Of a stretch of DNA of 64,000 nt, positions 12,725 to 60,164 are shown piece by piece. Position 1 is the first letter of the stretch; every line of letters starts with the position of its first letter. Under the pieces are notes generated by a model that saw only the letters and a program-made list of their open reading frames with translations, was not told where the DNA came from and ran no database searches. The stretch lies in assembly GCF_018977255.1 (NCBI RefSeq), contig NW_024704742.1:15688001-15752000 (forward strand). The letters are read 5' to 3'. The position numbers and the translations under genes were made by a program. This stretch comes from Callorhinchus milii. Its lineage: Eukaryota.

Positions 12725-13130
12725 GTGTGCCTGCTTGGTAAGCAGAGGAAATATCCCCCTTCCAGTGAAGGAAGACTGGATGAAGAACGAACCCAGTACA
12801 TCAGAGGAAGACTCACTGGTGGGAAAAGTGCAGCAAATAATGAGATGACAGCTCCTGAATCACTACATTCTCATGACATGAAGCATTTTACCAGTGACAT
12901 TGGTGATATGATGGAAGAAGCATCTCTTCCAATCGATTCTTCTACATCCAGCAATTGGGTGGGTGGCTTCCAACCTAGAGAGAAGATAGAGAAGGTTAAG
13001 AACTGTGCTACATTACCCCGCGACTTTATTGATGGTGTGGTGCTTCATGTGGCAAATGCATTGCTGAATGCTAATCAGGACCACCAGGAAAAAAGCAACG
13101 ATGAAGACAAGGGTTGCTGGAACAAGGGAG
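12725..13130 (+). CDS. TRMT44: TRMT44 exon 9
   Basis: Polypyrimidine tract and TTTAG acceptor, VCLLGKQRKYP...WVGGFQPREKIEKVKNCATLPRDF...WNKG(G), GTAAGA donor. Confidence 0.93.
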
Positions 13131-15258: not shown

Positions 15259-17604
15259 TCAAGCCTTCAAGCATAACCTTCTATTCCTTTCTCCCTCATG
15301 TAACTATTCTAGCTTTCCCTTAAGTACATCTATGCTATTTGTCTCAATAACTCCTTGTAGCATTTTCCATATTCCCACTAATCTTTGTGTGAAGAAATTT
15401 CTTCCCCATTTGATCTATTTGTGACTATTTTATATTGATGGCCACTGGTTTTGGTCTCACTCACAAGTGGAAACATCTTCCCTATGTCTACCCTATCAAA
15501 ACCTTTCATAAAGACCTCTATCGGGTCACCCTTTACCCTTATCTTTTCAAGAGAAAAGAATCCAAGTATGTTCAGTCTTTCCTGATAGGTATAACCTCTC
15601 AGTTCTGGGATCATCCTTGTGAATCTCCTTTGCACCCTCTCCAGCTCCTTTACAGTATTCTAAGTGTGGGCTAACCAATGTTCTATAGAAGTTTACCATA
15701 GCTTCCCTGCTTTTTATTTCTATCCCTCTAGAAATGTACCTCAAAGCCTGTTTTTTGTTCATGGCCTGATTAACCTGCGTTGCTACCTTTAGTGAATTGT
15801 GTACATGTACCCCTAGATGCCTTTGCTCCTCTAACTCCATTTAGGTTTTTATTTTCCAGGATGTATGTGACTTCCTTATTCCTTCTACCAAAATGTACTA
15901 CTTCACACTTTCTACGTTGAAATGCATTTGCCATTTAAATGCCCACTCAGCAAGTTTATTAATATCTTGCTGTAATTTGTTGCAGTCCTCCTCTGTATTA
16001 ACTACTCCCCCCAATTTGGAATCGTCCGCAAATTTTGAAATTGAACTGCTGATTCCTGAATCCAAATCATTAATGTATATTGTGAACGTCCCAATACCGA
16101 TCCTTGTGGAACACCACTGCCCACCAGTCTGAGTAGCTACCCTTTACCCCTACTCTCTGTTTTCTGGTTTACAGCCAGCTTGCTATCCATTCAGCTATTT
16201 TTCCCCTGACTCCACATGCTCTGACCTTATTTGTTAGTCTATTATGTGGTACCTTATCAAACAGCTTTTGGAAATCCAAATATATTTGGATTACTCTTGT
16301 CTACTCTTTCCGTTACCCCTTCAAAGAATTCATTGAGGTTTGTCAAGCATGACCTTCCTTTTTGAAATCCGTGCTGACTATTCTTTATTATGTTTTCCGT
16401 TTCTAAATGTTTTTCTATTACCTCCTTCAGTAAGGATTCCATTATCTTTCCTACCACCAGTGTTAAGCTGACAGGTCTATAGTTCTCTGGGGTTGTTCTA
16501 TCTCCCTTTTTAAATATAGGTATAACATTAGCTATCCTCCAGTCCTTTGGCACTACTCCCTTTTCTAATGAGTTATATATGTGTAATAGTGCCTCTGCTA
16601 TCTCTTCCCTCGATTCTTTTAATATACGCGGATGCAATCCATCTGGACCGGGGGTTTTATCCTCTCTGAGTTTCGTTAGTTTTTCGATTATATCTCCCCT
16701 TTGTATCTTAAATGTATTTATATTACTTTCGATCTCTTCTCTTCTACTGTCATGTCCACCTGATCCATCTCCCAGGTGAAAACTGAGGCAAAGTAATTAT
16801 TTAATATTTCTGCCATTTAGCCGTCGCGGCCTGGGAGCTTATCTTGTCCATCCCTTAGTGGCCCTATTCCTATTTTGATTTTTCTTTTGTTATTTATATG
16901 TCTGTAGAATATTTTACTATTTATTTTTATATTCCTTGATAATTTAATTTCATAATTCCTATTTGCCTTCCTAATTTTTTTTGATTGTTTTCCTGACCTC
17001 TTCGTATTTTTTTGGTCATGTTCTCCCTTGTTGTTTATGTACTTAGTGAACACCTCTTTCCTGAGTCTTAACTTTGCCCTTATGTCTTTATTCATCCTTG
17101 GTGTCATTATTATTAGCTTTGTCTTGCTTTTTAGCAAAATATATTTCTCTTGGACTCTATTGACCACTGTTTTAAATGTTTCTCACTGCTGCTCTATCTC
17201 TTTGTTTGCCAATATTTTTTCCAGTTTATTTTCCCAAGTTCCATTCTCATCCCCTCATAATCAGCTTTTTTCCAATCTATTACCCTGGTCTTTGTCATAC
17301 TGATGACCTTCTTAATCATTATCTTAAACCTTATTAAGTTATGATCACTATTGCCTAGATGTTCCCCTACTCGTACTTCTTTTAACTTCCCATTACCATA
17401 TCCAGCAGCGATTCCTCCCTTGTATTCCTCTTACATACTGGGTAAGAAAGAAGTTCTGTACACATTGAAGGAACTCCATTCCCTTATCCCCTTTATCTAC
17501 CTCTTCTAGCCAATTTATTTAGGGGTTGTTGAAATCCCCCATGATTATTATTCTGTGTCTTTTACTCATTTCCCTAATTTGCTTGCATATTTTTATATTT
17601 TGTT

Positions 17605-17722
17605 TTGTTTCGCCCCCAAATATACAGTCAATTCACTTTACATTATATCCTGTGAAGTGCTTTGAGACGTCTAGATGACGTGAAAAGCGCTACATCAAAT
17701 GCAAGGATTATTATTATTATTT
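17605..17722 (+). mobile_element. SINE 3' fragment inserted in CR1
   Basis: AAATATACAGTCAATTCACTTTAC...GAGACGTCTAGATGACGTGAAAAGCGC...(ATT)n. Confidence 0.8.
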
Positions 17723-18099
17723 CTTCCTCTACCTCTCTTCCACTATTAGGTGGTCTGTAGAGGACACCTATTTGTGTGAATGATCCCATCTTTAATCTCT
17801 ATCCACACAGATTCTGTTTCTGTCTTACTGTTGGCTATGTCCCTTTTTTCTACTGTCACGATATTATCCCTAACGAGTACAGCTACTCCACTGCTCTTTT
17901 CCCCATCTCTATCCTTTCTAAATATGTTATACCTTGCAATGTTTAGTTGCTAGTCCTGTTTTTTTTGTAGCTACGTTTCAGTAATCCCAATTATATCTGG
18001 TTCCTCACTACGAATTATTGCCTCCAGTTCTCCTGTTTTGTGTAAGTATGCACAAGAAGTTTGTGTAAGTAGGAATATGCTGGTCCAACCCAAAGGAAT

Positions 18100-18380
18100 T
18101 TAGTTATGAGAACAGAATAGGCAAACTGGGGCTGTACCCCCTGAATAGAGGAGGTGAAGGAGGGTGATCTGATCAATGTGTTTAAGAGAATTGACAAAAT
18201 GAATAAGACTTTTTCTATGGTTTTAGTGTCCAGAACAAGAGGATATAATCTAAAACGTAGGTTTAGACCTGTTCAAGATAAAATTAGAAGGCTTTGTTTT
18301 CAGAGTTGTAAGATTGTGGAATTTACTTCCTCAAAGACTGTTCATGTAGAGACGGGAATGTTTAAAGGATGATAGATAAA
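18100..18380 (+). mobile_element. Old CR1 3' fragment
   Basis: GDLINVFK...RTRGYNLK remnant typical of the CR1 ORF2 C-terminus. Confidence 0.6.
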
Positions 18381-18384
18381 TACT

Positions 18385-18640
18385 AATAACCCTTATATTG
18401 GTATAGTGCCTTATCACATTGAGATATCTCAAAACACTTCATCGGATACCCGGGCGAATATAGCAGCTGATATGTGCACAGCAATGTCTTACAAATAGTT
18501 ACGGAGTGAGTGACCAATTTTTGCGGGGGGATTGTTGGCTAGGACACCTGGAGAAACCCTATTCACTTTTCGAGCAGCGACACGGAATCTTTAACATCCA
18601 CCTGGACAGGCCGATGGGACCTTGGTTTAACATCTCATCC
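18385..18640 (-). mobile_element. Old Deu-domain SINE fragment
   Basis: Reverse complement contains GGATGAGATGTTAAACCAAGGTCCC...CAGGTGGATGTTAAAGATTCCGTGTCGC...CCAGGTGTCCTAGCCAAC. Confidence 0.7.
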
Positions 18641-19896
18641 GTAACTATCTACAATGAGTAAGGGTATCATAATATATGGAGAAAAGGCAGACATATACTA
18701 TTAAGTTACAGATCAGGTACGATCTAACAAAATGGTTGAGCAAGCTTGACGGGCCGAATGATCTACCCCTGTCTTTATGTTCCTAACACAAATTATGTTA
18801 CTTTTTCGAATGTTGAGGTGCAAACTGTCAGTCGAGTTTTGCCAATTTCCTAGCCAGTCCTAACGAAATGCATCATATTTTATTTGCACATTTTGCCAGT
18901 TGCACATTTTCCCTCTGCTGATTCTCAAACTAATAACTACAGAGCTGCAAAGCATGTTGCATAGAACTGCAAAGATTTGGTCATCAGGTAAAATCTTCAG
19001 CAGCAACTTAGATCGTAGAGGATCTGTAATTTGACAACATGCCTGCTTTTTCTCCATATATTATGATACCCTGATACCCACGTAGTAAACATTTTCGGAT
19101 GAGATGTTAAACTGAGGTTCCGTTGGCCTGTTTAGACACATTCTCTCTATTTTTAAAAGACTCATTCAAGGTATTTTAGCTAGTTGGTCTACATTAGAAA
19201 TCAGTTTTTTTTTACCTGCTGTACACATTTGTCCCCGAAAATCTGTTTTACTTTTGATTCACATTTTATTGATGAGATCAAATGCCAAACTACTGGTTTA
19301 GCACCTGTCAATATAATAGGAACAACGAGTCTGTGAAGCTTTAAATTTATACCAGAGTTCTCTGTTGTTCTATACAATTCAATTACTGTACATTCACTCA
19401 TACTGTGAACTGAATGTGCTTGACATGTAACCTTTCAATTCAGAATCTTGTGCCTGAATATTTCAGAAGTGTGCAATATCTAAAATAAATCAAAGCCAGC
19501 TAAGTCCCTACCTTTGACTTCATAAGTTCACACAGTGACAAATCTTTACACGGCATTGTTGTAGCAGAGTGCTCACGTAATACTTCATGTAATATTTTCC
19601 CTAACAACTCTCAAATTTATTTCTATCAATAATTTCAATAATAATATGCTACATACTTTCTACTAGGCTAAGTACATTTTAAATGCAGCATTTTTCTTAT
19701 TAGTAACTTCTTCTGTAATTCTAAAGGTCAATGTAGATTAAATTATAAATAATTAAAAGATCGCTGACAGTTACTGAAGTTTGTAGAATGATGTAGTTTG
19801 TGAAAGAAATCTGATGTTCATGAGAGATCAGGCCACATACTATTTTGAAATCTTGTTATTTGGCTTAAGGTAGTCCTCAATACTTTTTCATTGCAG

Positions 19897-20013
19897 GAAG
19901 TCTGCCTCTGAAGAATGTGGCAGGCCTTTTGGACAGAGATGCATTGCAGAGATTAAAGAAGGAATGTGGAGGTTTGAAGACTTTGTTGAGAAACAATTAT
20001 CAGGTATTTGAAG
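19897..20013 (+). CDS. TRMT44: TRMT44 exon 10
   Basis: TTGCAG acceptor, (G)SLPLKNVAGLLDRDALQRLKKECGGLKTLLRNNYQVFE, GTAAGG donor. Confidence 0.93.
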
Positions 20014-20357
20014 GTAAGGCTTACAACTTAGATTTTTCACCTGCTCTATCTAATTTGTTCCTGCAAGAAAAACTTCATTCTTTTGAAATGTCTGAACATG
20101 TAGCCCTACTTGTATGTCTATATATGTCTCTGTGTGACCATGCATATATTGAATGTATATGAAGATGAATCTTGGCTGTTATTTATGAACAATATATTTT
20201 TTCCATTGATAATCAATTTTCTTATTTACCGAACAAAAGTTTTTACAATCATCTGTTCTATTTACATTATCATTCCCACAAATATGATTTTTTAATATTA
20301 ATTAGACTATATTAGGTCTATTAAACATTTAATCTCACGACAATTCAGTCACTTACT

Positions 20358-21708
20358 ACAACAACAACAACAACAAAATTACATTTATAGAGCGCCTTTC
20401 ACATCGGGAGGACGTCCCAAAGCGCTGAACAGTCAGGTGTCGGAGCCCGAGCATGGGGAAGGGGTGGTATAGGGGTAAGGGAAGGCAGAGAAGTGGGAGG
20501 GCGACCGAAGGCACGGTCGAAGAGAAGGGTCCTGAGATCGGCCTTGAAAGAGGCAAGGGAGGAAGCGAGGCGAAGATGCCGTGGGATGGAGTTCCAGAGT
20601 GTGGAGGCAGAGAGGTTGAAAGCCCGGCCACCGATAGTAGCGCACGTCGGGTGGGAGACATGGAGCAGGCCGGAGCCCACTGAACGGAGGGAGTGGGCAG
20701 GTTGGTACGGAGTCAGCAGGTCAGAGAGGTAGGAGGGGGCAAGGCCATGGATGGCCTTAAAGGTGAGGACGAGAATCTTGAACTCGATCCTGTGGGGGAT
20801 GGGGAGCCAGTGGAGTCGGGTGAGGGTGGGAGTGATGGGGTCACGGAGCCTGGTGTGTGAAAGTACACGGGCTGCAGAGTTTTGGATGATCTGCAGCTTG
20901 TGAAGGGAAGAGTTGGGAAGGCCGATGAAGTTCCCGTAATCGAGCCTTGATGTGACGAATGAGTAGGTGAGGGTTTCGGAGGCCTGAGGGGTGAGGCAGT
21001 GACGGAGTCTGGCAATTTTGTGGAGGTGGTGGTAGGCAGTGCCGGTCATTGCGTGGATGTGGGAGAGAGAGGTCAGTTCAGGGTCAAACAAGACACCCAG
21101 GTTCCTGACTGGCTTAGTGAGGTTGAGTGTGCAGCCGTGGAGGCTGATGCTGCCAGCGCCCGAGGTGCCAATCAGGAGGGCCTCGGTCTTGCTAACGTTG
21201 AGTTGGAGAAAGTTGTTCCTCGTCCAGGACTTGATGTCGAACAGGCAGTCGGTCAGGATGCCAGTAGTCCTGGAGTTCAGGGTGGAGGCAGAGAGGTAGA
21301 GTTGGGTGTCATCTGCATACATGTGGAAATTTACCCCACGACTGTGGATGATGTCACCAATGGGGAGCATGTAGAGAGTGAAGAGGAGAGCACCGAGGAC
21401 AGAGCCCTGAGGAACACCGCACAAAACAGTGCGGGGGCTGGAGGAGAAGCTGTTTGCAGTGACGAAGTGGAAGCGGTGTGAAAGGTAGGACCTGAACCAG
21501 TCAAGGACAGAACCTTGAAGGTTGAGGTGGGAGGAGAGGCGGTGGAGGAAGATTGAGTGGTCCACAGTTTCAAAGAGCGGCGGAGAGGACGAGGAGGCAG
21601 AGGGAGCCCTGGTCACACATGGTCAGGATGTCGTTTGTAACCTTGACCAGAGCAGTTTCCGTGCTTTTGGCAGCACAGAAATCCGATTGCAGGGGTTCAT
21701 GGAGGGAG
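20358..21708 (-). mobile_element. L2 LINE, 5'-truncated (RT domain and 3' tail)
   Basis: ORF 20399-21616: [19 protein letters not shown]...[11 protein letters not shown]...LHWLP...[17 protein letters not shown]; (TTG)n tail. Confidence 0.93.
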
Positions 21709-22018
21709 TAAGAGGATAGGAACTTGGATAGGAAGGGGAGATTTGAATTGGGCTGGTAGCTGGATAGCTGCTATAGGTCAAGGGAAGGTTTCTTCAAGGT
21801 TGAAATCAACTTAACAGTTGAAATCCATATATAAATTTAAAGATTAATTAATCCTTTTGTACATTCACAAGTATTACATGACTTATTTTTCTACATTTAT
21901 GTTCCATTGCCCGACTCAGTGCTCACAGGCCTGCTGTGTATTCCACGATCCCTTCACGCCGCCATTGATGGCCATGCCTTCAGCCACTATCCCCTAATCT
22001 ATGGAACCCTCTGCCTCA

Positions 22019-24192
22019 ATAATAATAATCCTTGCATTTGATATAGTGCTTTTCACGTCTTCTAGACGTCTCAAAGAGCTTCACAAAATATGCTGTAAAG
22101 TGAATTGACTGCATATTTGTGGGTGAAACGCAGCAACAACAACAACAACAAGATTCCATTTATAGAGCGCCTTTCACGTCGGGAGGACGTCCCAAGGCGC
22201 TGTACAGTTGGGTTGGGACCCGAGCAAAGGGGAAATGGTCAGGGTGAGGGGAGGGAAGGGAGGGAGCGAAGAGGGGGGAAATGGTCAGGGTGAGGGGAGG
22301 GAAGGGAAGGGAGGGAGCGAGGAGGGGTAGAGAGTCGAGAGGGGAGCTGAAGGCACGGTCAAAGAGAAAGGTCTTGAGACCAGCCTTGAAGGAGGAAAGG
22401 GAGGAGGCGGCGAAGGAACTGGGGGATAGAGTTCCAGAGCCTAGGGGCTGAGAGGCTGAAAGCCCGGCCACCGATGGTAGGGCGGTTGGGGAGGGGGATG
22501 TGGAGCAGACCGGAGCCAGAGGAACGGAGGGTACAGGCAGGTAGGTAGGGGGATAGTAGGTCGGAGAGGTAGGAGGGAGCAAGGCCGTGAATGGCCTTGT
22601 AGGTGAGGATGAGGATCTTGAATTCGATCCTCTGGGGGATGGGGAGCCAGTGGAGGCGAGCGAGGGTGGGAGTGATGTGGTCCCGAAGCCTGGTGCGGGA
22701 CAGTACATGAGCTGCAGAGTTCTGAATGACCTGCAGCTTGTGGAGGGAGGTGGCGGGAAGGCCGGCGAGGAGAGAGTTCCCATAGTCCAGCCTTGACGTG
22801 ATAAAGGTGTGGACCAGGGTTTCAGCAGCGTGAGGGGTGAGGTAGTGCCGTAGTCTGGCGACATTCCGGAGGTGATGGAAGGCGGTGCCAGTTGTGGCGC
22901 GGATATGAGGGAGAAAGGACAGCTCAGGGTCGAACAGAACCCCGAGGTTCCTGACTGGCTTTGAGAGGTGGAGAGTGCAGCCTTGGATGCTGATGCTGTC
23001 AGCGCCTGAGGTGCGGAGGCGCTAACGCGAGCCAATCAGGAGGGCCTCAGTTTTATGCACGTTGAGCTGAAGAAAGTTGTCTCTCGTCCAGGACTCGATG
23101 TCGGACAGGCAGCTGTCAGGACATCGGTGGTCGTGGAGTTGAGGGTAGAGGAGGAAAGGTAGAGTTGGGTGTCATCCGCATACATGTGGAAGTTAACCCC
23201 ATGTCTGCGGATGATGTCACCAAGGGGGAGCATATAGAGGGTGAAGAGGAGTGGACTGAGGACAGATCCCTGAGAGACACCACACGAGACAGTGCGGGGG
23301 GTGGAGGAGAAGCCGTTTGTGGAAACAAAGTGAAGACGGTGGGAGAGGTACGACCTAAACCACTCAAGGACAGGGCCTTGAAGGTTGAGGTGGGAGGACA
23401 AGCGGTGGAGGAGGATAGCGTGGTCGACCGTATCGAATGCTGCCGATAGGACGAGGAGGCAGAGGGAGCCCTGGTCACAGATGGTCAGGATGTCATTGGT
23501 GACCTTGACCAGGGCAGTTTCTGTGCTATGGGCAGCACGGAAACCTGACTGAAGGGGTTCGAATAATGAATGGGTGGAGAGGAAAGAGCGCAGTTGGGAG
23601 GCGACAACTCTTTCCAGGACCTTGGACAGGAAGGGAAGGTTGGAGACGGGCCGGTAGCTTGATAGCTGCGACGCATCAAGGGAGGGTTTTTTCAAGGTGG
23701 GAGTGATGGTGGCAGTTTTTAAGGGAATGGGAACAGCCAGAGGAGAGGGACAGGTTGACGTTGTCTGTGATATGTGGGGCAAGGAGGTGGAGCTGGGAGA
23801 TAAGGAGTGGAGTGGGGATAGGGTCAAGGGAGCAGGTGGTGGGTTTCAGGGATAGGATGAGTTTGGTGACAGAGGGTAGGGAAACGGGTACGAAAGTGTG
23901 TAGGAGTAGGGTAGGAGTCGGAGTGTGGGAGGGAGGGGGTGGGGGGGGTGGGTGGATGTTGGAGGGGAAGTGACCGCGGAGGTAGGAGGGAGCAATTGCG
24001 CACACCAGTGTCCCACAAACAGTCGTGGATTGAAGTGACCAATTTATTATTGTTTTTTTTCTCTTGAGGGATTATTATCAGGTGTGTGAAGTAAGAAAAC
24101 TTAGTTTTGTTTAAGGTTTCGCCCTGCCAGGAATCGAACCCAGGTCTCTCGCTTGAGAGGCGAGTGCTCTAATCACTGAGCTACAGAACTCC
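22019..24192 (-). mobile_element. tRNA-Ala SINE (22019-22135 plus 23991-24192) split by an L2
   Basis: Both halves join into the family consensus at GCAGCA|GCAATTGCGCAC. Confidence 0.85.
22136..23990 (-). mobile_element. Young L2 LINE, 5'-truncated ~1.85 kb
   Basis: [63 protein letters not shown]-loop tail and (TTG)n. Confidence 0.93.
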
Positions 24193-24409
24193 TACAAGAT
24201 TCAATCCCTCTGCTTCACCCCTTCTTTACCTGTCTTTAAAACCCATATTAAAATTTACTTTGGCCATACCTCTGAACATTTCCCTCTCCTGTTTTTCTGT
24301 TGGCTTGGTGTTACAATTTTGCCATTGGATAGCATTCCGAGAAACAATCCTGTGTGAAGGATGTTATGTAAATTCAAGTTGCTGTTGTTGCTTTGAAACT
24401 TTGTTTCTC

Positions 24410-24830
24410 GTTCCCCAGTAATGCTCTTGCCTCTGAATAAGGTTGTGGTTTCAAAACCGACTTGAAACCATAGACTAAGTTGACTATCAGTGCTGTGAGT
24501 GTGTTGTATTGTCGAAGGTGCTGTCCTTCGGTTGAGACTTTAAACTGAGGTCCTGTCTGCCTGTTCAGGTGGACGTTAAAGATCCCATCGCACTATTTGA
24601 AAAGAGAAGGGAGATTCTTCAGGTGTCCTGGCCAACAAATCCCCCAAATACACTCACTCCGTGGCTGTTTGTGTGTCATTGATGTGCGCAAACTGGCTGC
24701 TGGGTTTCACCCACAAAATACACAGTCAACGCACTTTACAATATGTCCTATGAAGCACTTTGAGACAATGCAACAATATAATATATAATGCAACAATATA
24801 ATGATTCTTCAAAATCAAGAATTATTATTT
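24410..24830 (+). mobile_element. Old Deu-domain SINE
   Basis: GTTGAGACTTTAAACTGAGGTCCTGTCTGCCTGTTCAGGTGGACGTTAAAGATCCCATCGCACTATTTGAAAAGAG...GGTGTCCTGGCCAAC. Confidence 0.8.
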
Positions 24831-25339
24831 GCTTGTTTAACTTGTTTTATGTTAGTAAAGGTCATTACAGTGATCATGATGACAGGAACGAATCCTGTGG
24901 TATACTGTCATCAATTACAAAGATTCAACTTTTTCCTATTCAGGTCAGTTTGGGAAAGAGTTTCCTGTGAATAAAAGCACATGTAAGGACATAGAGAACA
25001 GGGCATCAGCTCAAGAACACTGACTGCTTCTAACTGAAATTAATCCACTGTATCCAATTAAAGATCTTCCTAGCTGTGCTACGAGAAAGATTCTCTTCGG
25101 ATTAGCTTTGTGTCTTCTAAATGTAGATTTAGACCAAACCGGTGATGCTGTAGTTTTTTAAGATTAGTTTTGTGTTGTTATGATGATTTAACTTTATCAA
25201 GTTATGATAGTACACCATTTTACTTATTTATTGATACTATATTATATATACATACACACATATATATACACACACTACAGGCTGGTAAATGTGATACCTT
25301 AAAGATCACACTTATTCTGTATTTTTCTTCAACATTTAG

Positions 25340-25563
25340 TTGTCCAGAGCAACGTTCAGATTCGTGACTGGACAAAAGAGAAGCAAACAAGACGACCAGC
25401 ATCCAATGCGAAAAGAAAATTACCATCTGAAGCATGCAAGACACGTCTCTGCTGGTTTTTTGCAAATCACCCTGATGGATGTCCTCGAAGCACAGAAAGA
25501 TGCCCATTTGCACACGGAACAGAGGAGCTGAAACCTTGTGCAAACAGCAAAAAGGAAAATTAA
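25340..25563 (+). CDS. TRMT44: TRMT44 exon 11 (last coding exon, CCCH zinc finger, stop)
   Basis: ATTTAG acceptor, (V)VQSNVQIRDW...KTRLCWFFANHPDGCPRSTERCPFAHGTEEL...KKEN, TAA at 25561-25563. Confidence 0.93.
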
Positions 25564-48453: not shown

Positions 48454-48536
48454 ATTCACTTCACAGCTGTTGTGGGATATTGCTTTGCTTAAATTGGCTG
48501 CCCTGTTCTCATACAAAATACCTCCACCCCCAACTC

Positions 48537-51500
48537 ACATTGTCCAGTGCCTTGGCACATCCTCCCAACATGAAAGTCGCTATATAAATGTAGGTTTTGT
48601 ATTTATGCATTTATACATGGTTTACCCTGCCAGCAAAGTTGATTCAACACAAGCATTTTTTTTGGTGTTTGCTTGTGCTTTCCTGTTTCCAGTTGAACAG
48701 CAAGCATTCAAACCCTGAAGACTTGCAAATGGTGATTTCCTGAAAATTACAGACAACTTTATACGATCTGAAAACAATGCCTTTTATTAATCTGATTTTG
48801 ATTGTGTGATGAGATTACCCGGAGTGGAAATAAAAATGGTTTTGGCCAGGCTGGTGTGGGCAGATGGAAAAGCAGGCCAGTGGGAATAAATGTTTAGGAA
48901 TTGAGCCTTTAAACAGAAAACAGAGCTAAAATGGGAGCCTCATGTTGTGAACAAAATATGACTCAATTCATAAAGGTATTTACCAGATTTTATGGTGCAT
49001 TTTCTATATTTTGCAGGAACTTGAGGAATTTGGAAATTGAATCATTGAGGTCGTAATTACAGTACAATAAATGCTTGCATTTGATATACAGTAGTGCTTT
49101 TTAATGTTGAAATGTTTAAATGTTTTCTGTGAAATGTAGTATTTATAGATAAATACATCAGCTAATTTATGTTCAGCAATGTCCCACTAATAGTCATTAA
49201 CTTAATGACCAACATTTTTTTATCTTGATGGGGGGATGTTGACCAGAACATTGTATGACAAATTTTAATGAATGTTATTCCCATACCCTTCTATTCCCTT
49301 CTCCCTCATTTGAAGATCTAGCATTCCTTTTGAATGCATCCATACTATCTGATTCAACCATTGCTTCAGGCTGTGAATTCCACAATCTCACTATCCTCTG
49401 GGTGAATAAGCTCCTCCCAAATTCTCTTTTACTATTTTTATGGTGTGCTTCAACAGATGGATAAGTAATACTGCATTTATAATTTTTTTTTAAAAATCTT
49501 TGTAGTAAAAGGCACTTTTCTACTTTTGCAGATATCAGAAAAGTTCCAAACCTGCATAAGCATATTTTTTTCTATCTCACAATTTTCAGATGCACCAAGA
49601 TAGTAAAATAAGAATAGGTTTAGATTTGTAAAGGACAATTTCAGGAGAGGCACCATGATATATTTATTTATCCAGAGAGTAATTGACCACTTGATCACTT
49701 TGTAAGAAAGAGTGGTTGAGCTCCAGTTGATGTTGTGATGGTAGGGTGGGTATTCTGGATGAATGAAACCAAATGGGCTGAAGGGTCTTCTTTATCCAAA
49801 ACAATCGTGAAACTGTAATCTTTGCTCCTGACTGCCAGTGAATTGATAAGGAAGAGTTGGGGACCTTTGGTGTTCTGTTTAATGTGGGGTATCACATGCA
49901 CCTAGACAACCAACCAAAGAATATGCTGGGAAGCCATTTCTAGGGTGTAATCTCTCAACGCTCTATTGACCAGTACTGCCTAAGGTTACACAAAATTGAA
50001 AAGAGCATCACAGCACAGAAATAGGCCATTCAGCCCAACTAGTCTGTGCTGATGTTCATATTCCACTTGAGGCTCCATCCGTCTGGATTTCTCTCCCATA
50101 CCACTCTATTCTCTTTGGAAACACTAGCTGCCTACAACATTTGCCTGATTTGCTGGAGCCCTAATAGACATTTTCCTCCCATTCAGGAAGCTGGTGAAAT
50201 GTTTATTGAGGTACGAAAACTGCGATGCTATGTGTCAACAGGCACCAAATGGAATTGAGAAAGTAAACCAAATAAATATTATTTCAGAAATGTCAGTTAA
50301 TAGAATAAGAGGGTAGAGTTTCAGGATTCACACTAAGCAATATTCCTTTACCCAGAGGGTAATTAATAATTGGACAAGTTACCAGGAAGAATTATTAAGG
50401 CCAGCACACTGGACATGTTTAAGAAACCCCTTGATGCTATGATGGGAAGACAGCAGGGTTGCCAGAAATTAAAATATGATGGTAGTCCAAAGTCAACCAA
50501 GGTTCTAGCCCACAAGTAGCCCAATATTATACATTGCCTATTGTGGGTAGTAGAGTAGCCGATTTAAGTTGGTGCTTTTGAAACTGTGTAAGAAAAGATC
50601 TTCAAAGGAAGAAAAGCATTCTGCAGGTTTAAATTTTTTTTTTAAATTTGGCACTCACCCAAAATAGATTTGTCGCACAGTTTTAAAAAAAAACCTCTCA
50701 ATCGGGAGTGAACCTGCCCAATCTTGTAACATTGGAAGACGGTGAAGTGGGTATTCTGGAAGGTTCAGATTCAAATGGGCTGAAGCACCTTATAAATCTG
50801 AACAGAAATTGCAAATGTGTAAACTTGTGAAGTTGCCTTGCACTCATCTTCCCAAATCAATGTGGGGGGGAAAAGCCCATCAGAAAAAGGGTAGTGAGAA
50901 TGATACCTCAACACCAAAACTAGCACCTCATGATGTAAAATATGATTCCTCGGGCAATGTCACGTATGCCAAGCCGACAAGCAGGAACTTGACTGTGATT
51001 GGAGATTACATCAGAACTGAATTCCCATGGGTTGGCAAGATGTTCATGTTTTCTCTACAAGTTGCACTTAATGTTCCAGCCTTGAGGTATTGTTTCTGCT
51101 GCTGTTTTTCTGCCGAGCGCTTTTCAATGTCATTGCCTCTTTTGAATATAAATAACTAATAATTTAATATAAAGCCTTGTGCATCAAAGCACAATCTAAA
51201 AGCACTTAACAAAAAAAATTACTTTAAACTGCAATAAATGTTTGCACACATAATACACACAATCGCACTTTACCATTTTCCCTGTGAAACACTTTGAGAC
51301 ATCTCAACGACATGAAAAGCAGATATATCAATGCAAGGATTATTAGTAGTATTGTTAATATTCCCATGTGACAGGCACTGTACTTAACAGTGCCAGCAAT
51401 GACCATAAATAACCATGAAAAGCCAATTAAACTGACTTTTTAGGGAGCAGGGGAAGGGTCAACTTGCATTATGGAGGAATGCTGGTTGGGAGGCAATACA

Positions 51501-52470
51501 ATTCTATTTGCAAAGTAAAAGGAAATGACAAAAAAATATAGAGGGAGAAGAAGGAAAGGAAAGAGCATGAATCACTTTGAGATATTTTGACATGATGAAA
51601 GGTGCCATAAAAATTCAAGTGTTTTCTTTCACACCAGTTGCTGAAAAGAGAGAAAGTTCGCTGCAACGAGAGAACCTAGATGGCCCACTGTCCATCACAA
51701 TCAATCAATTCAAACATAAGCACTTGAAATAAAAAGCAATGTGACTTTTTGAGAATTTGATCGACTTCACTAAACCCAATTGGCTTCAGCTCAGGAAATT
51801 AAGTATTTTGCAAATTCACTGATCTTAAAAAGAAGCATTGAATAAAGCAATCAATTTCAAAATTGAAGCCTGCCTGAAGACCAGAAGATGTGCTTCACAC
51901 CTGAGACTAGGAACCAGGGATTGTACTGTTAGGAGATTATGCAGTATTTGACAACATTTGGAGCTCAACAAAATCTATATTTCTATCACACTGCATTAGC
52001 GCTCGGAGTTTGAGTACTTATGTTTCAAATGATTGATTTTTTCTGCTAGAGTTTTTGCAAAGATGATGAAGATTATATATTTTTCAAATCTTTTCTATTT
52101 CTGAAACTTATGCAGAAAATGAAAGTTAGAAATCTGCCAGTCAACAGTTCTCCATGAGTTGTACTGGGAAGAATGGAAAGGCTGTATTAGGACCCGAGGG
52201 TAATTCTTGATAGAGAAATAAAGAATAAAGTTGTAAATTATTGTACATAAACATAAACATCATCTGAAGTTGGGTCAGACAACAATGCTCCATTAGTTTG
52301 ACCCTTCACTGCAACAGGATATGAATTTATATTAAGTAAAAAGTAAAAGAATCTTGGATTCAGAGCAATTATTCAGTATACATTGGAAATAATGTTAAGA
52401 TCTTCAAAAAGGAATGTCAGAGGTTACTTTTTAGATACCTCACTGTTGCAGTGAAGCTATGAACAAATAG
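48537..52470 (+). repeat. Left arm of a large inverted duplication
   Basis: Colinear reverse-complement match to 53580-59909, except for 50244-50940 and several indels. Confidence 0.93.
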
Positions 52471-52559
52471 CTTTTCATTTGATAGATCAAAAGAAGCTCT
52501 GAGCTCACGTTTCCCGCCAGTATAGCAGAGAGGACTCTGAGTGTGTGTCTGTGGATAGA

Positions 52560-53350
52560 GAGAGAAAGTGGGTAAGTTCAGGATCTCTGAGTTTGAGCAT
52601 TGTGTCATCTGCAAATGTGTCATCTTCATTAGCATTGTGTCATCTGCAAATTTAGCCACTGTGCTTGTGACTCCGAGCTCCAGGTCATTTATGAAGATGT
52701 TAAATAAAAGAGATCCCAAAACAGACCTCTGCAGAACTCCACTGGTAACATTCTCTCAGCTGATGACATTCCCTGTACCACCACCTTCTGGGTTCAATCT
52801 GTCAGACAGCAAGATACTTCCTCTGATTCCCTCTTTCTTTATTTATTAGGACTTCTGGATGACTTCTATCTATGCTATTTCTTCCTACATGGACAAGCAC
52901 GATTGGTTCGTCACCTGCTCCCTTGAGCATTTTGTCAACCCGTGATGTCAGATCCTCAACTCATGCACCCAGGAGGCAACTTACCGTTTGATTTTTTGGG
53001 TCCAGTTTGCGCAGAAGAATTCTTTCTGTAAAGTGGATAGCCATATTCCCTAACAACACGACTTGTCTGGTTTTCCTTCTATTTTCCCTCTTCTGACAGG
53101 CTGCTGGATGGTCTCAGGGATTGCACATTCTTGCCTGTCTCAGCAAGCCCTTAGATTTCCATATTGTCTCTCTCTTTAGAGGAGAGAAACTGTTTGAGAG
53201 CACCAGGGATTCCTCCTCCTGCCTCATTACCTGACCACAATTTCTAGAACCTTTTCTGACAGAGACCCACCCGCCTCTTCTTGATAACCGACCGACCGTA
53301 CCTCCAACCATACCTTCATGGTCACCTCCCCACTCTCCCTGGCTAGATGT
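52560..53350 (-). mobile_element. CR1 remnant in the palindrome spacer (ORF1 esterase piece joined to an RT piece)
   Basis: Minus strand EDLTSRVDKMLKGAGDEPIVLVHVGRNSI (CR1 ORF1 SGNH-like) and [25 protein letters not shown]. Confidence 0.75.
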
Positions 53351-53616
53351 CATGCTCCACCACTGTCAAGCACTCTGGGACGCTACCCTTCATAAGAAGC
53401 GATTTTTCAACTTCAATATGAAAGCTGACTGCGGTGGTGGGGGCAGAGAAAGAGGACAAACAAATAACTTAAAAACTAATATTTAATCTCAGAAAGTGTA
53501 TTAATTTCAAATAAGAGTATGATGCATTATGTGCAAATTTCTTGCTGATTAACTGCCATAAGCACACCAAGTCCACATACTATTTCATCATAGCTTCATG
53601 GCAACAGAGAGGTATC

Positions 53617-54630
53617 CTGGAGGATCATAAACTTGGTAAAGGAGGCCCTTTGGCACTTCCAAAACCAGTCGTCGTTCTGCCGAACGAGGGGACGGTGAGG
53701 GCCTTCCTCAGGCTAGCGCACGCTAGGATCAGGGATTATATACTGAGGGACAAGCTGAAGATTGACTCAACCGCGGCAAAGGCCAGATGGGGCCTGACCC
53801 CGGCAGGAGCAGCTCCGGCACTACCCACTCAGGATGCACCCACCAGGTAGCCTACAAGCGCACCCAAAACTGACAGAAAAAAACATAAGGGTACAGAAGG
53901 ACGCTCGAGATGTAACAACAATAACAAGATTCCATTTATAGAGCGCCTTTCACGTCGGGAGGACGTCCCAAGGCGCTGTACAGTTGGGTCAGGACCCGAG
54001 CAAGGGGAAAATGGTCAGGGTGAGGGAAGGGAGGGAGCGAGGAGAGGGAAGAGAGTCGAGAGGGTAGCTGAAGGCACAGTCAAAGAGAAAGGTCTTGAGA
54101 CCGGCCTTGAAGGAGGAAAGGGAGGAAGCAAGGCGAAGGCACTGGGGGATGGAGTTCCAGAGCCTAGGGGCTGAGAGGCTGAAGGCCCGGCCATCGATGG
54201 TAGGGCGGTTGGGGCGGGGGATGTGGAGCAGACCGGAGCCAGAGGAACGGAGGGTACGGGCGGGTAGGTAGGGGGATAGTAGGTCGGAGAGGTAGGAGGG
54301 AGCAAGGCTGAGAATGGCCTTGTAGGTGAACCAACGAGTGTCCCAAAAATGTATGTACAGTAAATACATGCGCGTACAGTGCACATCGGAGCAGCTTCCG
54401 AAAGCGGCAAATGCATGGATGTGCTGTACACAGGGGCGACTCCCGACTGTTTTAAAGGGAGCGTCCCAAAAAACATGTGCACAACCTACGTGCTGTGAAG
54501 GAATGTACCATAAACAAAGGAAGTTTTTTTGTATCGGGAGAAGGGAGAAAACTGTAACAGAAGTTGTTGTTTTAGATTTCTGTTGTAACAAATATTATAT
54601 TTATAAATATATATATTTTCAAAAAGAAAC
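53617..54630 (+). mobile_element. Tx1/L1-clade LINE 3' fragment with 16 bp TSD
   Basis: RLAHARIRDYILRDKLKIDSTAAKARWG resembles the ORF2 C-terminus of fish/shark Tx1-type elements; AT-rich 3' UTR ending in an A tract; flanked by GCAACAGAGAGGTATC and GCAACAAAAGAGGTATC. Confidence 0.75.
53914..54329 (-). mobile_element. Young L2 3' end nested in the Tx1-like element
   Basis: Highly similar to 22136-22605; CTCCC-loop tail. Confidence 0.9.
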
Positions 54631-56326
54631 GCAACAAAAGAGGTATCTAAAACATAAGCGCTGACATTCCATTTTGAAGATCTCAACATTATTTCTCGTC
54701 TACAGTGAATAATTGCTCTGAATCCAATATACTTTTACTTTTTACTTTATATAAATTCATATCCTATTGCAGTCAAGGGTCAAACTAATGGAGCATTGCT
54801 GTCTGACCCAACTTCAGAAGATGTACAGTATTCTATAATTTGTACATTTGCAACTTTTTTTTTCTCTCCTCTATCAAGAGGAGCCCCCAGGCCCCTAATA
54901 CAGCCTTTCCATTCAGCCCAGTACAACTCATGGAGAACTGTTGACTGGCAGATTTCTAACTTTTGCATAAGTTTCAGATATAGAAAAGATTTGAAAAATA
55001 TATAATCTTCATCATCTTTGCAAAAACGTTAGCAGAAAAAATCAATCAATTGAAATATAAGCACTCAAACTCTGAGCGCTAATGCAGTGTGATAGAAATA
55101 TATATTTTGTTGAGGTCCAAATGTTGTCAAATACTGCATAATCTCCTAATAGTACAATCCCTGGTTCCTAGTCTCAGGTGTGAAGCACATCTTCTGGTCT
55201 TCAGGCAGGCTTCAATTTTGAAATTGATTGCTTTATTCAATGCTTCTTTTTAAGATCAGTGAATTTGCAAAATACTTAATTTCCTGAGCTGAAGCCAATT
55301 GGGTTTAGTGAAGTCGATCAAATTCTCAAAAAGTCACATTGCTTTTTATTTCAAGTGCTTATGTTTGAATTGATTGATTGTGATGGACAGTGGGCCATCT
55401 AGGTTCTCTCGTTGCAGCGAACTTTCTCTCTTTTCAGCAACTGGTGTGAAAGAAAACACTTGAATTTTTATGGCACCTTTCATCATGTCAAAATATCTCA
55501 AAGTGCTTCACGAGTAATTCCCATCAAATGTGGTGGCTGTTCTTCTGTAGGCAAACGTAACAGCCATTTCCACAGACAAGTACAGGCCCTGTCTTGTGGG
55601 CTTGCATGTTGAGCTACCTACTGTTCTGTCCTCTGTTAATATGTTCATCATTTTTTGCTCTTTCCTTTTATTTCCTCCTTCTTCTTGTATGATTTTTGAC
55701 ATTTCCTTTTACTTTGCAAATAGAATTGTATTGCCTCCCAACCAACATTCCTCCTTCATGCAAGTTGACCCTTCCCCTGCTCCCCCCAAAATCAGATTAA
55801 TTGGCTTTTCATGGTTATTTATGGTCATTGCTGGCACTGTTAAGTACCATGTTTGTCACATAAGAATATTAATAACACTAATACTGCTCCTACTAATAAT
55901 AATCCTTGCATCGATATATCTCCTTACCATGTCATTGAGATGTCTCAAGCACTTCACAGGTTAGACTGTAAAGTGTTGTGATTGTGTGTATTTTGTGTGC
56001 AAACATTTACTGCAGTTTAAAGTAATTGTTTTTGTTAAGTGCTTTTAGACTGTGCTTTGATGTACAAGACTTTATACTAAATTATTAGTTATTTATATTC
56101 AAAAGAGACAGTGACATTGAAAAGCGCTCGGCAGAAAAACAGCAGCAGAAACAATACCTCAAGGCTGGAACATTAAGTGCAACATTTGCAGAGAAACATG
56201 AACATCATGCCAACCCATGGGAATTCAGTTCTGATGTAATCTCCAATCACAGCCAAGTTCCTGCTTGTCGGCTTGGCTTTCGTGACATTGCCCCGGGAAT
56301 CATACTATAAAATCATATAGTCTTTT

Positions 56327-56700
56327 ATAATAATAATCCTTGCATTTGAGATAAGCGCCTTATCACATCTTTGAAGTATCTAAAAGCATTTCACAGAATA
56401 TACTGTAAAGTTAATTGACTGTATATTTTGTGGGCGAAATATGGCAGCCAATTGCACATATCCGTGTTCCACAAACAGTCATGAATTGAGAGACCCATCT
56501 TTTAAATTTTTCTTTAAAATGGATTAATACCCCCAGAAAGTGCTGTGCCAATCAACTATCACCCGGGTTCCTACTTACTCCTAGGTAAACAGGGTAAGGC
56601 ATGAAGCGTGAGGAGTAAGGAAACTTGGTTGCGTCCTGCCCGGGAATTGAACCCGGTTCCTCTCACTTGTAAGGTGATTGCTCTAACCAATAAGCTTCCC
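56327..56700 (-). mobile_element. tRNA-Ala SINE, long subtype (degenerate)
   Basis: Contains GTTTACCTAGGAGTAAGTAGGAACCC block, B box and tail. Confidence 0.8.
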
Positions 56701-58118
56701 TTAGCTCCTCAGACCTTCAGTCAATGTCATATGTCCCCACAATTGGATGTACTCCCTTTCTCTGCTTTATTCATCCATCCTTACTTTTATATCTCTCTCC
56801 TCTGCACTGCACAGTGGGCCTTCATGTCTCAGTGGAGCAGCCAAACTGAAGTATCATGTTTAAAGACACATACACACAAAGCTGAGGGATGTTGTACCAC
56901 TGATAAAAAGCGCATTAAAAGATCATTGAGCAAACAGAGGATGAAATATCAACATAAATATTTAGTGAAGGATCAAGACAGCAATAAGTGATAGCAGCGA
57001 CTCCATGGAATTCAAAATGTTCCTGCCTCATTTTGTTTCTCCTGCATTTTGACCTTTGTATTTTTGTATTGCTGTATACAGAATGAAGAATTTTTGAGGA
57101 TGAGAAAATACCTTTAAAAATATCACAGATGTCAACGCTTAATTTCAGCTTTGACATTGCACTGCATAATTAAACGTTCCTGTTTTAAATAGAAGGGTAT
57201 TCTTGTTTTCCAAAAGTATGTTAACGTTCAGGCTAAATCTGTTTCTCTGTCTGTTGCTAACAACAATGAAGAAATACAATGAGTTTAAAAACACATCTGC
57301 CTCTTTGTTTATGAAACAATCATATTTCACACTGATGATTCTGCAAGGCTTACAAAGGATAACATGTACCTGTTAACAATTCTTTTGTGGACACATCTGT
57401 AGATATACTTCTTTCAACTGCTGCCTGGGTGACACTTACCACTGCAGTTTTCAGACCTTAATAGACATTTCACCAACTTCCTGACTGGGAGGAAAATGTC
57501 TAATAAGGCTCCAGCAAATCAGGCAAATACTCTAGGTGGATAGTGTTTCCAAAGGGAATAGAATGGTATGGGAGAGGAAATTTGGACGGATGGAGCCTCA
57601 AGTGGAATATAAACATCAGCACATCCGACGTGAAAGGCGTTTTACAAATATAATTTTGTTGTTGTTTCTGTGCTGGCATGTTCTTTATAATTCTGTGTAA
57701 CCTTAGGCAGTACAGACAGTGCAGAGAGATTACATGCTAGAAATGCCTTACCAGCATACCCTTTGATTGGTTCTAGGTGCATTTCCTACAGCGTTACCCC
57801 ACATTAAACAGAACACCAAAGGCCCCCAACTCTTCCTGATTACATCACTGGCAGTAGGGAGGAAAGATTACGGTATCTCGATTGGTTTGGATAAAGAAGA
57901 CCCTTCACCCCATTTGATTTCATCGATCCACAATACACACCCTACCATCTTCCCATCACAGCATCCACTGGAGCTCAACCACTCTTCCTTACAAAGTGAT
58001 CAAGTGATCAATTTCTCTCTCGATAAATAAATATATCATGGTGCCTGTCCTGAAATTACCCTTTACAAATCTAAACCTGTGTATTCTTATTCTACTATCT
58101 TGGAGCATCTGAAAATTG

Positions 58119-58336
58119 TGTTCTGCATTTGCTTTCTTAATTCCAGTTTACAAGCTGTATCTCTCTATCTTGTCCCCTCTGTGACAAAGTGTTTCCGGAC
58201 TGAAGATCCCCTGAATCTGACTGAAGATACTCTCAAGTCTCAGCAGCTAACATTACAGTTTTAGGGTACCTGAATTTATGTTCTCCATCCCTCCTGTAAA
58301 GCAAACTGGAAAGGAAAACTCTACTACTGTAGAACA
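58119..58336. mobile_element. Solo-LTR-like insertion (218 bp, TG...CA, 4 bp TSD)
   Basis: ATTG|TGTTCTGCA...TGTAGAACA|ATTG; absent from the paralogous site at 49580-49583. Confidence 0.7.
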
Positions 58337-58609
58337 ATTGGGAGATAGAAAAAAATATACTTATGCAGGTTTGGAACTTTTCTGATATCTGCAAAAGTAG
58401 AAAAGTGCCTTTTAATGACTATTAGTGGGACATTGCTGAACATAAATTAGTTGATGTATTTATCTATAAATACTACATTTTACAGAAAACATTTAAACAT
58501 TTCAACATTAAAAGGCACTACCTATATCAAATGCAAGCATTCCTTGTACTGCTATTACAGCCTCAATGATTCAATTTCCAAATTCCTCAAGTTCCTGCAA
58601 AATATAGAA

Positions 58610-59444
58610 CAACAAGATTCCATTTATAGAGCGCCTTTCACGTCGGAAGGATGTCCCAAGGCGCTGTACAGTTGGGTCAGGACCCGAGCAGGGGGTAAAT
58701 GGTCAGGGTGAGGGGAGGGGAGGGAGGGAGCGAGGAGGGGGTAGAGAGTCGAGAGGGGAGCTGAAGGCACGGTCAAAGAGAAAGGTCTTGAGACCGGCCT
58801 TGAAGAAGGAAAGGGAGGAGGCGGCGAAGGCACTGCGGGATAGAGTTCCAGAGCCTCGGGGCTGAGAGGCTGAAGGCCCGGCCACCGATGGTAGGGCGGT
58901 TGGGGCGGGGGATGTGGAGCAGACTGGAGCCAGAGGAACGGAGGGTACGGGCAGGTAATTAGGGCGATAGTAGGTCGGAGAGGTAGGAGGGAGCGAGGCC
59001 GTGAATGGCCTTAATAATAATAATAATAATAATCCTTGCATTTGATATAGCGCTTTTCACGTCGGGAGGACGTCCCAAAGCGCTTCACAGAACACACTGC
59101 AAAGTGAATTGACTGTATATTTGTGGGCGAACGCGGCAGCCAATTGCGCACAGCAATGTCCCACAAACAGTCGTAGATTGAAAATGACCAATTTATTATT
59201 GTTTTTGGTTTTGGAGGGATTATTATTAGGCTCTGTGTGGAGTAAGGAAACTTGCCCAAGGTTTCGCCCTCTGCCTGGAATTGAACTCAGGTCTCTCACT
59301 TGCAAAGCGAGTGCTCTAACCACTGAGCTACAGGACTCCACAAGCTACAGGCCTTGTAGATGAGGATGAGGATCTTGAATTCGATCCTCTGGGGGATGGG
59401 AAGCCAGTGGAGGCGAGCGAGGGTGGGAGTGATGTGGTCGCATG
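58610..59444 (-). mobile_element. Young L2 3' end (contains a nested SINE)
   Basis: Matches 22136-22680; absent from the paralogous site at ~49003; GAA duplicated. Confidence 0.9.
59013..59339 (-). mobile_element. tRNA-Ala SINE, young subtype, nested in L2
   Basis: Full-length copy flanked by GGCCTT at 59007-59012 and 59350-59355. Confidence 0.92.
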
Positions 59445-60164
59445 GAAAATGCTACATTAAACATGATAAATGCCTTTATGAATTGAGTCATATTTTGTTC
59501 ACAACATGAGGCTCCCATTTTAGCTCCGGTTCTGTTAAAGGCTCAATTCCTAAACATTTATTCCCACTGGCCTGCTTTTCCATCTGCGCACACCAGCCTG
59601 GCCAGGAGCATTTTTATTTCCACTCCGGGTGATCTCTTCACAGAATCAAAACCAGATTTAAAAAAAGGATTGTTTTCAGATTGTATAAACGTGTCTGTAC
59701 ATTTCAGGAAATCACTATTCGCAAGTCTTCAGGGTTTGAATGCTTGCTGGCATCTGGCATCAGGAAAGCACAAGCAAACACCAAAAAAAATGCTTGTGTT
59801 GAATCAACTTTGCTGGCAGGGTAAACCATGTATAAATGCATAAATACAAAACCTACATTTATATAGCGACTTTCATGTTGGGAGGATGTGCCAAGGCATT
59901 GGACAATGTAACATTTGCACCTTCGCTAGTGGTGAGGGCTGAGGGGGTGTGGGATGGGGGCCGAGGAGGTGGGGGCCGAGGAAGTGAGGTAAAGATGGCC
60001 AAATGTGCATTCAAAGAAGATTATCTTGATGCAGACCTTGTGGAAGAGAGGGAACGGGTAAGTTGAAGGAACCAGAATGGAGTTCCAAAGTTTGGGAACA
60101 GATTTGCTTCAAGTCTGGTTACCAATGTTGGGGAAGGTGCTCATTCAGCACTCATTCACAACTC

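Follow-up and report, generated by a model that had tools for sequence, protein, structure and literature searches.

Inverted duplications with arms of kilobase size are known from several settings. In the human inversion HsInv0209, inverted duplicates of 7 kb share 94% identity and contain a 782-bp island at 99.9%, which is the likely breakpoint (PMC3961182). Human fold-back duplications, which are de novo events of 10 kb to megabases beside terminal deletions or translocations, have spacers of 766-70,466 bp, and 3 of 21 junctions are hybrids of short and long interspersed element (SINE/LINE) repeats (PMC3907307). The palindromes of the primate X and Y chromosomes consist of inverted arms, more than 99% identical, around a spacer, with conversion as the likely homogeniser (PMC3723533, PMC8981503). 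In humans, tracts of non-allelic conversion average ~250 bp (10.1101/135152). Conversion is described as persisting until insertions of transposable elements (TEs) and large indels disrupt pairing (Fawcett and Innan, PMC3924837). Here we describe an inverted duplication of ~11.4 kb in the genome of Callorhinchus milii, at positions 48537..59909 of a stretch of 64,000 nucleotides that we call the window (assembly GCF_018977255.1, contig NW_024704742.1, positions 15,688,001 to 15,752,000 of the forward strand). Its arms have diverged unevenly and contain two perfectly identical tracts, of 355 bp (tract 1) and 138 bp (tract 2), and its nearest known parallels are inverted segmental duplications that carry an island of identity, such as HsInv0209.

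The locus shares with HsInv0209 its kilobase inverted duplicates, a mean identity in the low nineties and a near-perfect island of a few hundred bases, but no host gene was found in its arms, its island measures 355 instead of 782 bp, and it is much older by neutral divergence. The high-identity island that characterizes the class of polymorphic inversions is represented here by both identical tracts. With the human fold-back duplications it has in common a single-copy spacer, here of 1.1 kb, and a junction in homologous SINE/LINE sequence; unlike them it is interstitial, old and ~4-6 kb in size, each of the three DNA-like samples described below contains it, and its repeat junction is the outer one and not that of the spacer, so that it works like this class without being assigned to it. 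As in the X/Y palindromes, inverted arms flank a spacer and conversion is the likely homogeniser, whereas the arms are 92.1% and not >99% identical, show no gene match and are not enriched in GC; because conversion is confined to islands, the locus looks like a late or escaped stage of such a palindrome. Finally, diverging duplicates subject to non-allelic conversion likewise show tracts a few hundred bases long, with conversion held back by divergence, by TE insertions and by large indels, although the present arms are non-coding and their islands persist next to 13-15% divergence, where the human estimates suggest escape (10.1101/135152, PMC3924837).

Self-BLAST of 46-64 kb, followed by pairwise alignment of the arms, returned seven minus-strand blocks, all colinear and within ~10 bp of the coordinates proposed in a sequence-only reading of the window, which had described an imperfect palindrome of ~11.4 kb around a spacer of ~1.1 kb. 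The parts are the following, percentages being identities between the arms.

48537..52470, plus strand: left arm, 3,934 bp, from self-BLAST and pairwise alignment
52471..53579, unstranded: spacer, 1,109 bp; mostly repeat debris, though single-copy as a whole
53580..59909, minus strand: right arm, 6,330 bp, ~3,350 bp of them right-only
48537-49007 / 59909-59442, minus: block, 92.1%
49002-49200 / 58609-58412, minus: block, 94.5%
49506-49584 / 58414-58336, minus: block, 97.5%
49578-50247 / 58120-57419, minus: block, 81.0% with gaps
50941-51567 / 56304-55656, minus: block, 87.6%
51568-52441 / 55510-54640, minus: block, 92.4%
52434-52470 / 53616-53580, minus: block, 86.5%, E 1e-5

Arm against arm, 230 of 2,905 aligned columns are mismatches (116 transitions and 114 transversions; 92.1% identity), with 26 gap openings. 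Old SINE and other repeat debris is common to both arms, and a word-size-4 search revealed no credible inverted homology between the internal blocks 50244-50940 and 56306-57421, both as the sequence-only reading had it. The duplication has ordinary flank on both sides within the window, and a sensitive flank-to-flank search found no inverted extension beyond the arms. The spacer occurs nowhere else in the window and shows no significant self-inversion. On its minus strand, near 52630-52755, lies a CR1-like reverse transcriptase (RT) fragment, whose match to PF00078 (E 0.0076) falls short of the family cut-off.

The identity of the arms is a mosaic, well beyond chance. It includes the two identical tracts:

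51573..51927, plus strand: tract 1, left copy, 355 bp, 0 differences; begins 5 bp inside the boundary of a 145-bp indel
55151..55505, minus strand: tract 1, right copy, the reverse complement of the left one; 3,223-bp loop between the copies
48548..48685, plus strand: tract 2, left copy, 138 bp, 0 differences; first 56 bp in a decayed SINE/L2 3' tail
59761..59898, minus strand: tract 2, right copy, the reverse complement of the left one; 11,075-bp loop

In 20,000 permutations the longest run was 179, so that none reached 355, and a fraction of 0.0008 reached 138. Repeat-derived and innermost segments of the arms differ by 13.4-15.0% (Jukes-Cantor distance, JC, 0.147-0.167), several unique segments by 4-5% (4.3%, 5.1%) and others by ~10%, the neutral divergence being JC 0.147 for the outer pair of segments and 0.161-0.167 for the inner pair. 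The old TE tail in tract 2 is ~78-86% like its other copies in the window, yet 66 of its 67 positions are identical between the arms (a post hoc binomial test gives P 0.0002-0.0007). Both tracts start 11 bp or less from an edge of homology (rough chances 0.04 and 0.07), and their GC contents are 0.372 and 0.384, against 0.367 for the arm. Since identical tracts are present, the arms did not evolve independently, or not neutrally. If neutral, tract 1 is younger than ~1/17 of the age of the arms (95% bound), whatever the rate; this amounts to 19 versus 330-380 million years (My) at 2.2e-10, 4 versus 73-84 My at 1e-9, and 2 versus 33-38 My at 2.2e-9, where the lowest rate is one merely assumed for Callorhinchus milii and the highest a mammalian figure (PMC4422223), and 1e-9 is our own middle choice. 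A perfect run of 91 bp was dropped as a further tract, as it consists of 36 + 55 bp across a 308-bp indel; the segments that flank this indel, 49132-49197 and 49506-49577, have 2 mismatches in ~138 bp and may represent one more converted tract, split afterwards by a deletion. Adjacent double substitutions between the arms numbered 48 against 27.5 expected, robustly to trimming near gaps, but we rejected this excess as a signature of error-prone synthesis, CpG-masked TE pairs of the window being similar (ratios of 1.95, 1.50 and 1.17 versus 1.81). The transition/transversion ratio is near 1.0 between the arms versus 1.2-1.7 in TE pairs, and the doublet excess is maybe a genome-wide mutational trait.

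The inverted duplication is real. A sequencing-run search with the left arm listed 24 runs, from one organism throughout, of which 9 hold part of the arm, and four samples from 2025 contain 0.70-0.76 of the left-arm words. Four of the 24 runs were compared: X1, X2 and X4, which are DNA-like, and X5, which we guess to be RNA. The comparison covered contigs over 47860-54640 at a likeness threshold of 80, the body of the right arm lying outside this range, and its results derive from 40 of 634 variant rows, 15 of 766 joints and 32 pieces. The left outer junction was spanned by contigs in X1, X2 and X4, the junction between left arm and spacer in X2 and X4, and the spacer together with the 37-bp arm end and the start of the adjoining insertion in X4 only (53364-53645); the joint at 54640, where a Tx1-like element meets the right arm, and the right outer end were without read support in the contigs compared. 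All 18 arm rows among these 40 variant rows carry the right-arm letter. In each of three runs a record departs from the left arm for 30 letters at 49197, the point at which the right arm lacks 308 bp, and an X2 record (record 11; 778 letters, 29 differences) fits the right-arm form. Summed contig depth in TE-free arm bins is 9-25, versus hundreds to a million over repeats. The collapsed contig over tract 1 (51573-52168) has 1.88, 1.72 and 1.73 times the median unique depth, where two copies would be expected to give 1.60, although contig depth is not strictly a copy number; the medians were taken from 6, 5 and 6 of the 8 pieces in the respective runs, with the tract contig and the mosaic and right-arm records excluded. 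Unique contigs show 0-1 allelic differences per 500-700 bp. One of the three samples may be the source of the assembly, yet all three agree. The contigs of three DNA-like samples contain sequence of either arm at a depth close to that of two copies, and they cross the left junctions; the locus is therefore not a misjoin, nor is it a family of repeats. The sequence-only reading, which had regarded the arms as duplicated genomic DNA and not as terminal inverted repeats (TIRs) of a transposon, is thus upheld by the low depth of unique bins, the near-two-copy depth and the right-arm letters; it had also named a haplotype misjoin and a dispersed repeat family as what would speak against it, and we found both arm types in 3/3 DNA-like samples and unique arm bins at the low depth given above.

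Next to tract 1, position 51928 shows the right letter in 3/3 contigs, and the right-type path of X1 has the left letter at 51963, a state that is not graph merging because a right letter stands only 12 bp away; the two arm differences nearest the tract thus look unfixed. Contigs that are mosaics of left and right (X4 record 18, X2 record 13) were rejected as traces of conversion, their switches falling inside identical runs of more than 30 bp, as graph merging would have it. Several further observations were made on the contigs: an 895-letter contig of X1 matches only down to 48058 while those of X2 and X4 continue, a possible indel polymorphism of the left flank; a gap of 8 letters near the left arm's inner end (52139-52473) is present in X1 and X4, not in X2; and the spacer has high summed depth at 52627-52853 and 53308-53534, with a spacer contig (52766-53377) showing 0 differences in 3/3 DNA-like runs.

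Besides substitutions, the arms are separated by the following insertions and one-sided segments.

53617..54638, plus strand: non-long-terminal-repeat element end, multi-copy, 5'-truncated, inserted into the right arm 37 bp from its inner end
53913..54329, minus strand: L2-type 3' fragment nested in the Tx1-like element; 92% to 58608-59012
58610..59441, minus strand: L2-type 3' fragment present in the right arm only, in which a young tRNA-derived SINE is nested at ~59012-59349
50247..50940, unstranded: left-only middle block of old repeat pieces; unique contigs in X1, X2 and X4
56306..57419, unstranded: right-only middle block, an old SINE (56323-56696) and ~725 bp without a match in the window
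49198..49505, unstranded: left-only debris, 308 bp of old repeat
58121..58342, unstranded: right-only segment, 222 bp
55511..55655, unstranded: right-only segment, 145 bp, which bounds identical tract 1

The insertion at 53617-54638, which resembles a Tx1-type 3' end (it has no Pfam match), is flanked by a 9-bp direct repeat, AGAGGTATC, at 53608-53616 and 54639-54647, and other copies of the element reach further 5' than 53617; the right arm has its true inner end in the isolated 37-bp match, which this insertion, with its 9-bp target-site duplication, severed from the rest. The L2-type fragment at 53913-54329 is absent from other copies of the element, whose contigs in X1, X2 and X4 have a joint from 53913 to 54329 that skips 415 bp. 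The SINE nested at ~59012-59349 is 97% identical to three other copies in the window and has a tRNA match at 59271-59333. Among the repeat pieces of the left-only middle block is presumably a CR1 3' end. Three non-TE or old-TE indels, one of 308 bp confined to the left arm and two of 222 and 145 bp confined to the right, resemble deletions, their direction being a matter of inference: a deletion in the right arm is suggested for the 308 bp by a 3-bp microhomology at the right-arm joint, and one in the left arm for the 222 bp by a microhomology of 6 of 7 bp. The notion that each arm serves as an internal outgroup, put forward in the sequence-only reading, holds for insertions with hallmarks of their own (a target-site duplication, a young family), which are polarised, and fails for the other indels.

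Two features contain the outer breakpoints:

48470..48603, plus strand: remnant of an old SINE that continues into the shared 3' tail; contains the left outer breakpoint
59843..60000, minus strand: the shared tail with a C-rich, probably L2-type upstream part; contains the right outer breakpoint

The left upstream part scores 61 against SINE (shuffled maximum 29), and the right upstream part lies above the shuffled maximum, weakly, for 2 of 8 L2-type tails (46 vs 40; 32 vs 29). The outer breakpoint falls in a decayed retroelement tail common to both sides. At the inner end, 52470/53580, no repeat pair was seen, any original microhomology being absorbed into the arm end. Homology past the outer breakpoint through a C-rich minisatellite was considered and rejected, for its score of 34 (block-shuffle P 0.013) was equalled or exceeded by 2 of 11 unrelated L2-type tails. 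The minisatellite itself, with a 22-bp unit in 4.5 copies, lies at 48349-48450, just outside the left breakpoint, and a short C-rich duplication at 59955-59986, outside the right one, is no more like it than unrelated L2 tails are. A separate tandem duplication, a 177-bp unit twice head-to-tail with 97% identity, is found at 46718-47076, ~1.5 kb left of the palindrome, and is young and local.

Fold-back or template switching, the origin suggested by the sequence-only reading, can only be inferred but is plausible, as the spacer is within the human fold-back range and the outer junction lies in a shared SINE/L2 tail. Because the copy is interstitial, a second switch back is required, which the shared tail could supply. 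An inversion with two-sided staggered breaks was rejected, since it predicts interleaved duplicates and not nested ones as here. Our favoured explanation, which we regard as probable, is a single old interstitial inverted duplication that decayed and was patchily homogenised by arm-to-arm conversion under near-neutrality. The original unit would have been at least 4 kb of non-coding DNA, probably 5-6 kb prior to the deletions. During replication or repair the new strand may have switched template, reversing at the spacer edge to copy the segment backwards, and may have rejoined the chromosome through the short 3' tail common to SINEs and L2 elements. The arms then reached ~15% divergence at neutral sites and were fragmented by retroelement insertions and deletions, while conversion over a few hundred bases would have reset patches, up to large indels or the edge of homology, leaving the tracts of 355 and 138 bp; weak constraint may keep the 355-bp tract convertible. 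That there was one event is consistent with the similar divergence of the outer and inner halves, and conversion is favoured over selection because the 138-bp tract extends over a decayed SINE/L2 tail. The lengths of the tracts fit the human mean given above, and their starts close to homology edges and the apparently unfixed differences beside tract 1 also speak for conversion.

Several points weigh against this explanation. The mosaic within one genome differs from the defining mark of conversion, which is a derived change common to both arms relative to an outgroup. Tract 1 consists of unique, AT-rich sequence in which motifs of enhancer type occur, other unique segments (4-5%) are also less diverged than repeat debris, as selection predicts, and selection itself can sustain conversion (PMC3924837). 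The tracts are not enriched in GC, and the innermost arm ends, spatially the closest, are among the most diverged. The state of 51963 could be a plain single-nucleotide polymorphism and that of 51928 a choice in bubble popping (1 in 8), and the non-homologous middle block demands reciprocal deletions if there was a single event.

Among the other explanations, an assembly artefact, by which haplotypes were misjoined or polishing erased the differences in the tracts, is hardly credible. The want of read support at 54640 and at the right outer end would agree with it, but the 8% divergence and the arm-specific insertions far exceed the allelic differences of unique contigs, both arm types occur in 3/3 DNA-like samples, and polishing is an unlikely cause of the identity of tract 1 because the collapsed contig shows no other letter inside it in 3/3 DNA-like runs. 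It is scarcely conceivable that the arms are TIRs of a fold-back or DNA transposon, or a dispersed repeat family: their inverted layout with a short middle is suggestive of this, but their unique bins have a depth of 9-25 where true repeats have thousands, the spacer has an RT-like fragment only and no transposase among the open reading frames (ORFs) scanned, and no direct repeat is seen by eye at the outer ends, 48536/59910. We further consider it very improbable that a long transcript across both arms folds into a perfect 355-bp duplex that is diced or edited from A to I. Such a duplex is geometrically possible at -657 kcal/mol, which is trivial for any perfect repeat, and X5 has 0.36 of the words where two runs of the same study have 0.00; yet X5 covers flank and arm equally, at depth 2-6 and in short pieces, and is possibly DNA, and the arms are without an Rfam match apart from tRNA heads of SINEs. 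No RNA run is on record among the runs containing the left arm. The gap in the cover of X5 at ~51722-52400 was not used as evidence. The two runs at 0.00, X11 and X14 (217 and 94 million letters), may differ from X5 through tissue-specific background transcription or DNA in one library.

The possibility that one or more conserved non-coding elements in the arms form a doubled enhancer, of Hmx or a neighbouring landscape, kept by purifying selection with or without conversion, is unlikely but carries some weight. The differences in unique DNA are graded (0%, 4.3%, 5.1%) against 13-15% in repeat debris, and tract 1 has NKX/HMX- and PBX-type motifs; in a post hoc count, CAAGTG occurs 2 times against 0.23 expected and a PBX-type site once against 0.16, beside 1 TAATT against 1.46 and 0 FOX sites against 1.71. 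Duplications of an HMX1 enhancer are also reported to alter the mammalian phenotype (PMC12085581) and, as said, selection can sustain conversion (PMC3924837). However, tract 2 overlies TE debris, 0 differences in 355 bp during 15% neutral divergence would need constraint of ultraconserved level on a redundant copy, and the ORFs scanned over 25.6-64 kb have no Pfam match to a host gene; moreover, the mammalian HMX1 enhancer sits between CPZ and HMX1 (PMC7349607), whereas the present locus is 23 kb from TRMT44. Motif scans gave 0 matches in metagenomes and none in full-text literature, which is uninformative on conservation, and the run search found no other species, at near-zero power (the 355 bp make up ~34 of 413 words at a threshold of ~21, and 18 are left at 98% identity). 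The fuller proposal that tract 1 is a developmental enhancer of the Hmx landscape, its two inverted copies kept identical in a holocephalan lineage by selection plus conversion over tens to hundreds of My while the remainder of the duplication decays, possibly with the 3.2-kb segment between them flipping, strikes us as doubtful. We are no more inclined to believe that the identical tracts are crossover sites at which the 3.2-kb or the 11-kb segment inverts recurrently, with both orientations segregating. Loops of 3,223 and 11,075 bp would allow it, and the human analogue HsInv0209 and the recurrence described as common for such inversions lend it support (PMC3961182); on the other side, no strand-changing joint was found among 15 of 766, where contigs cannot phase across an identical tract of 355 bp. 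A length of 355 bp is also short for frequent crossover. Recurrent inversion is compatible with the favoured explanation, the tracts being then partly scars of exchange. Two or more events, by which an outer pair (48537-50246) and an inner pair (50941-52470) were copied separately and the middle blocks never duplicated, are likewise a doubtful alternative. The middle blocks share no homology, and their repeat remnants diverge more from other copies than arm does from arm; but the neutral divergence of outer and inner pairs is alike (0.147 vs 0.161-0.167) about one axis of symmetry, and deletions are common here, as the three other large non-TE indels show.

As to the surroundings, one gene was recognised 5' of the left arm, presumably TRMT44-like:

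5447..25563, plus strand: TRMT44-like gene; AdoMet_MTase exons 5447-5608, 6475-6645 and 8257-8427; final coding exon 25303-25563 with a CCCH finger

The assignment was made because the PF07757 exons (this AdoMet_MTase family was matched in Pfam by 3/5 exon-sized ORFs at 5.4-11.1 kb) and weak PDB matches of 25303-25560 to CCCH fingers (best E 0.028) fit TRMT44. Its coding end lies 23 kb from the start of the left arm. Downstream of it, the Pfam scan comprised 154 stop-to-stop ORFs with a minimum length of 48 aa, located outside the window's repeats at 25.6-64 kb (146 + 8), exons below 48 aa and non-coding genes being outside its scope; it gave no match to a host gene in the arms and no CPZ- or GPCR-like match among these ORFs. 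Its matches were retroelement fragments and a weak unrelated one, EGF_Sp38_C (E 0.005, below the cut-off), and within the set of 146 the sole match was an L2 endonuclease fragment at 32138-32617. Rfam gave 10 matches, all tRNA-like heads of SINEs. Literature searches on TRMT44, CPZ, HMX1, the enhancer and Callorhinchus palindromes, with supplements and subscription journals outside their coverage, gave no paper on the locus among those listed, and synteny terms were not found in the text of PMC10696661. Elsewhere in the window, the young tRNA-derived SINE is present at 318-638, 34750-35070, 40367-40691 and 59020-59345 (~97% identical), with a fifth copy at 63755-64000 (91.5%); several long remnants of L2-type RT/endonuclease, whose open frames measure 200-400 aa, lie at 20399-23845, 29900-32600, 43385-44659 and 61781-62711; and a single N stands at 13190, just past a large TRMT44-like exon ORF.

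Overall, the overwriting of arm by arm is a known and fairly ordinary genome process. The matter would gain weight if tract 1 were a doubled enhancer, since gains of HMX1 enhancer copies change mammalian craniofacial form (PMC12085581); if true, such an enhancer pair would represent the concerted evolution of enhancers without any coding sequence. As it stands, the locus is a natural record of an inverted duplication escaping concerted evolution in a slowly evolving vertebrate, with islands of identity that end at indels beside ~15% divergence, and with an outgroup, conversion tract lengths and relative rates for cartilaginous fish could follow from it.

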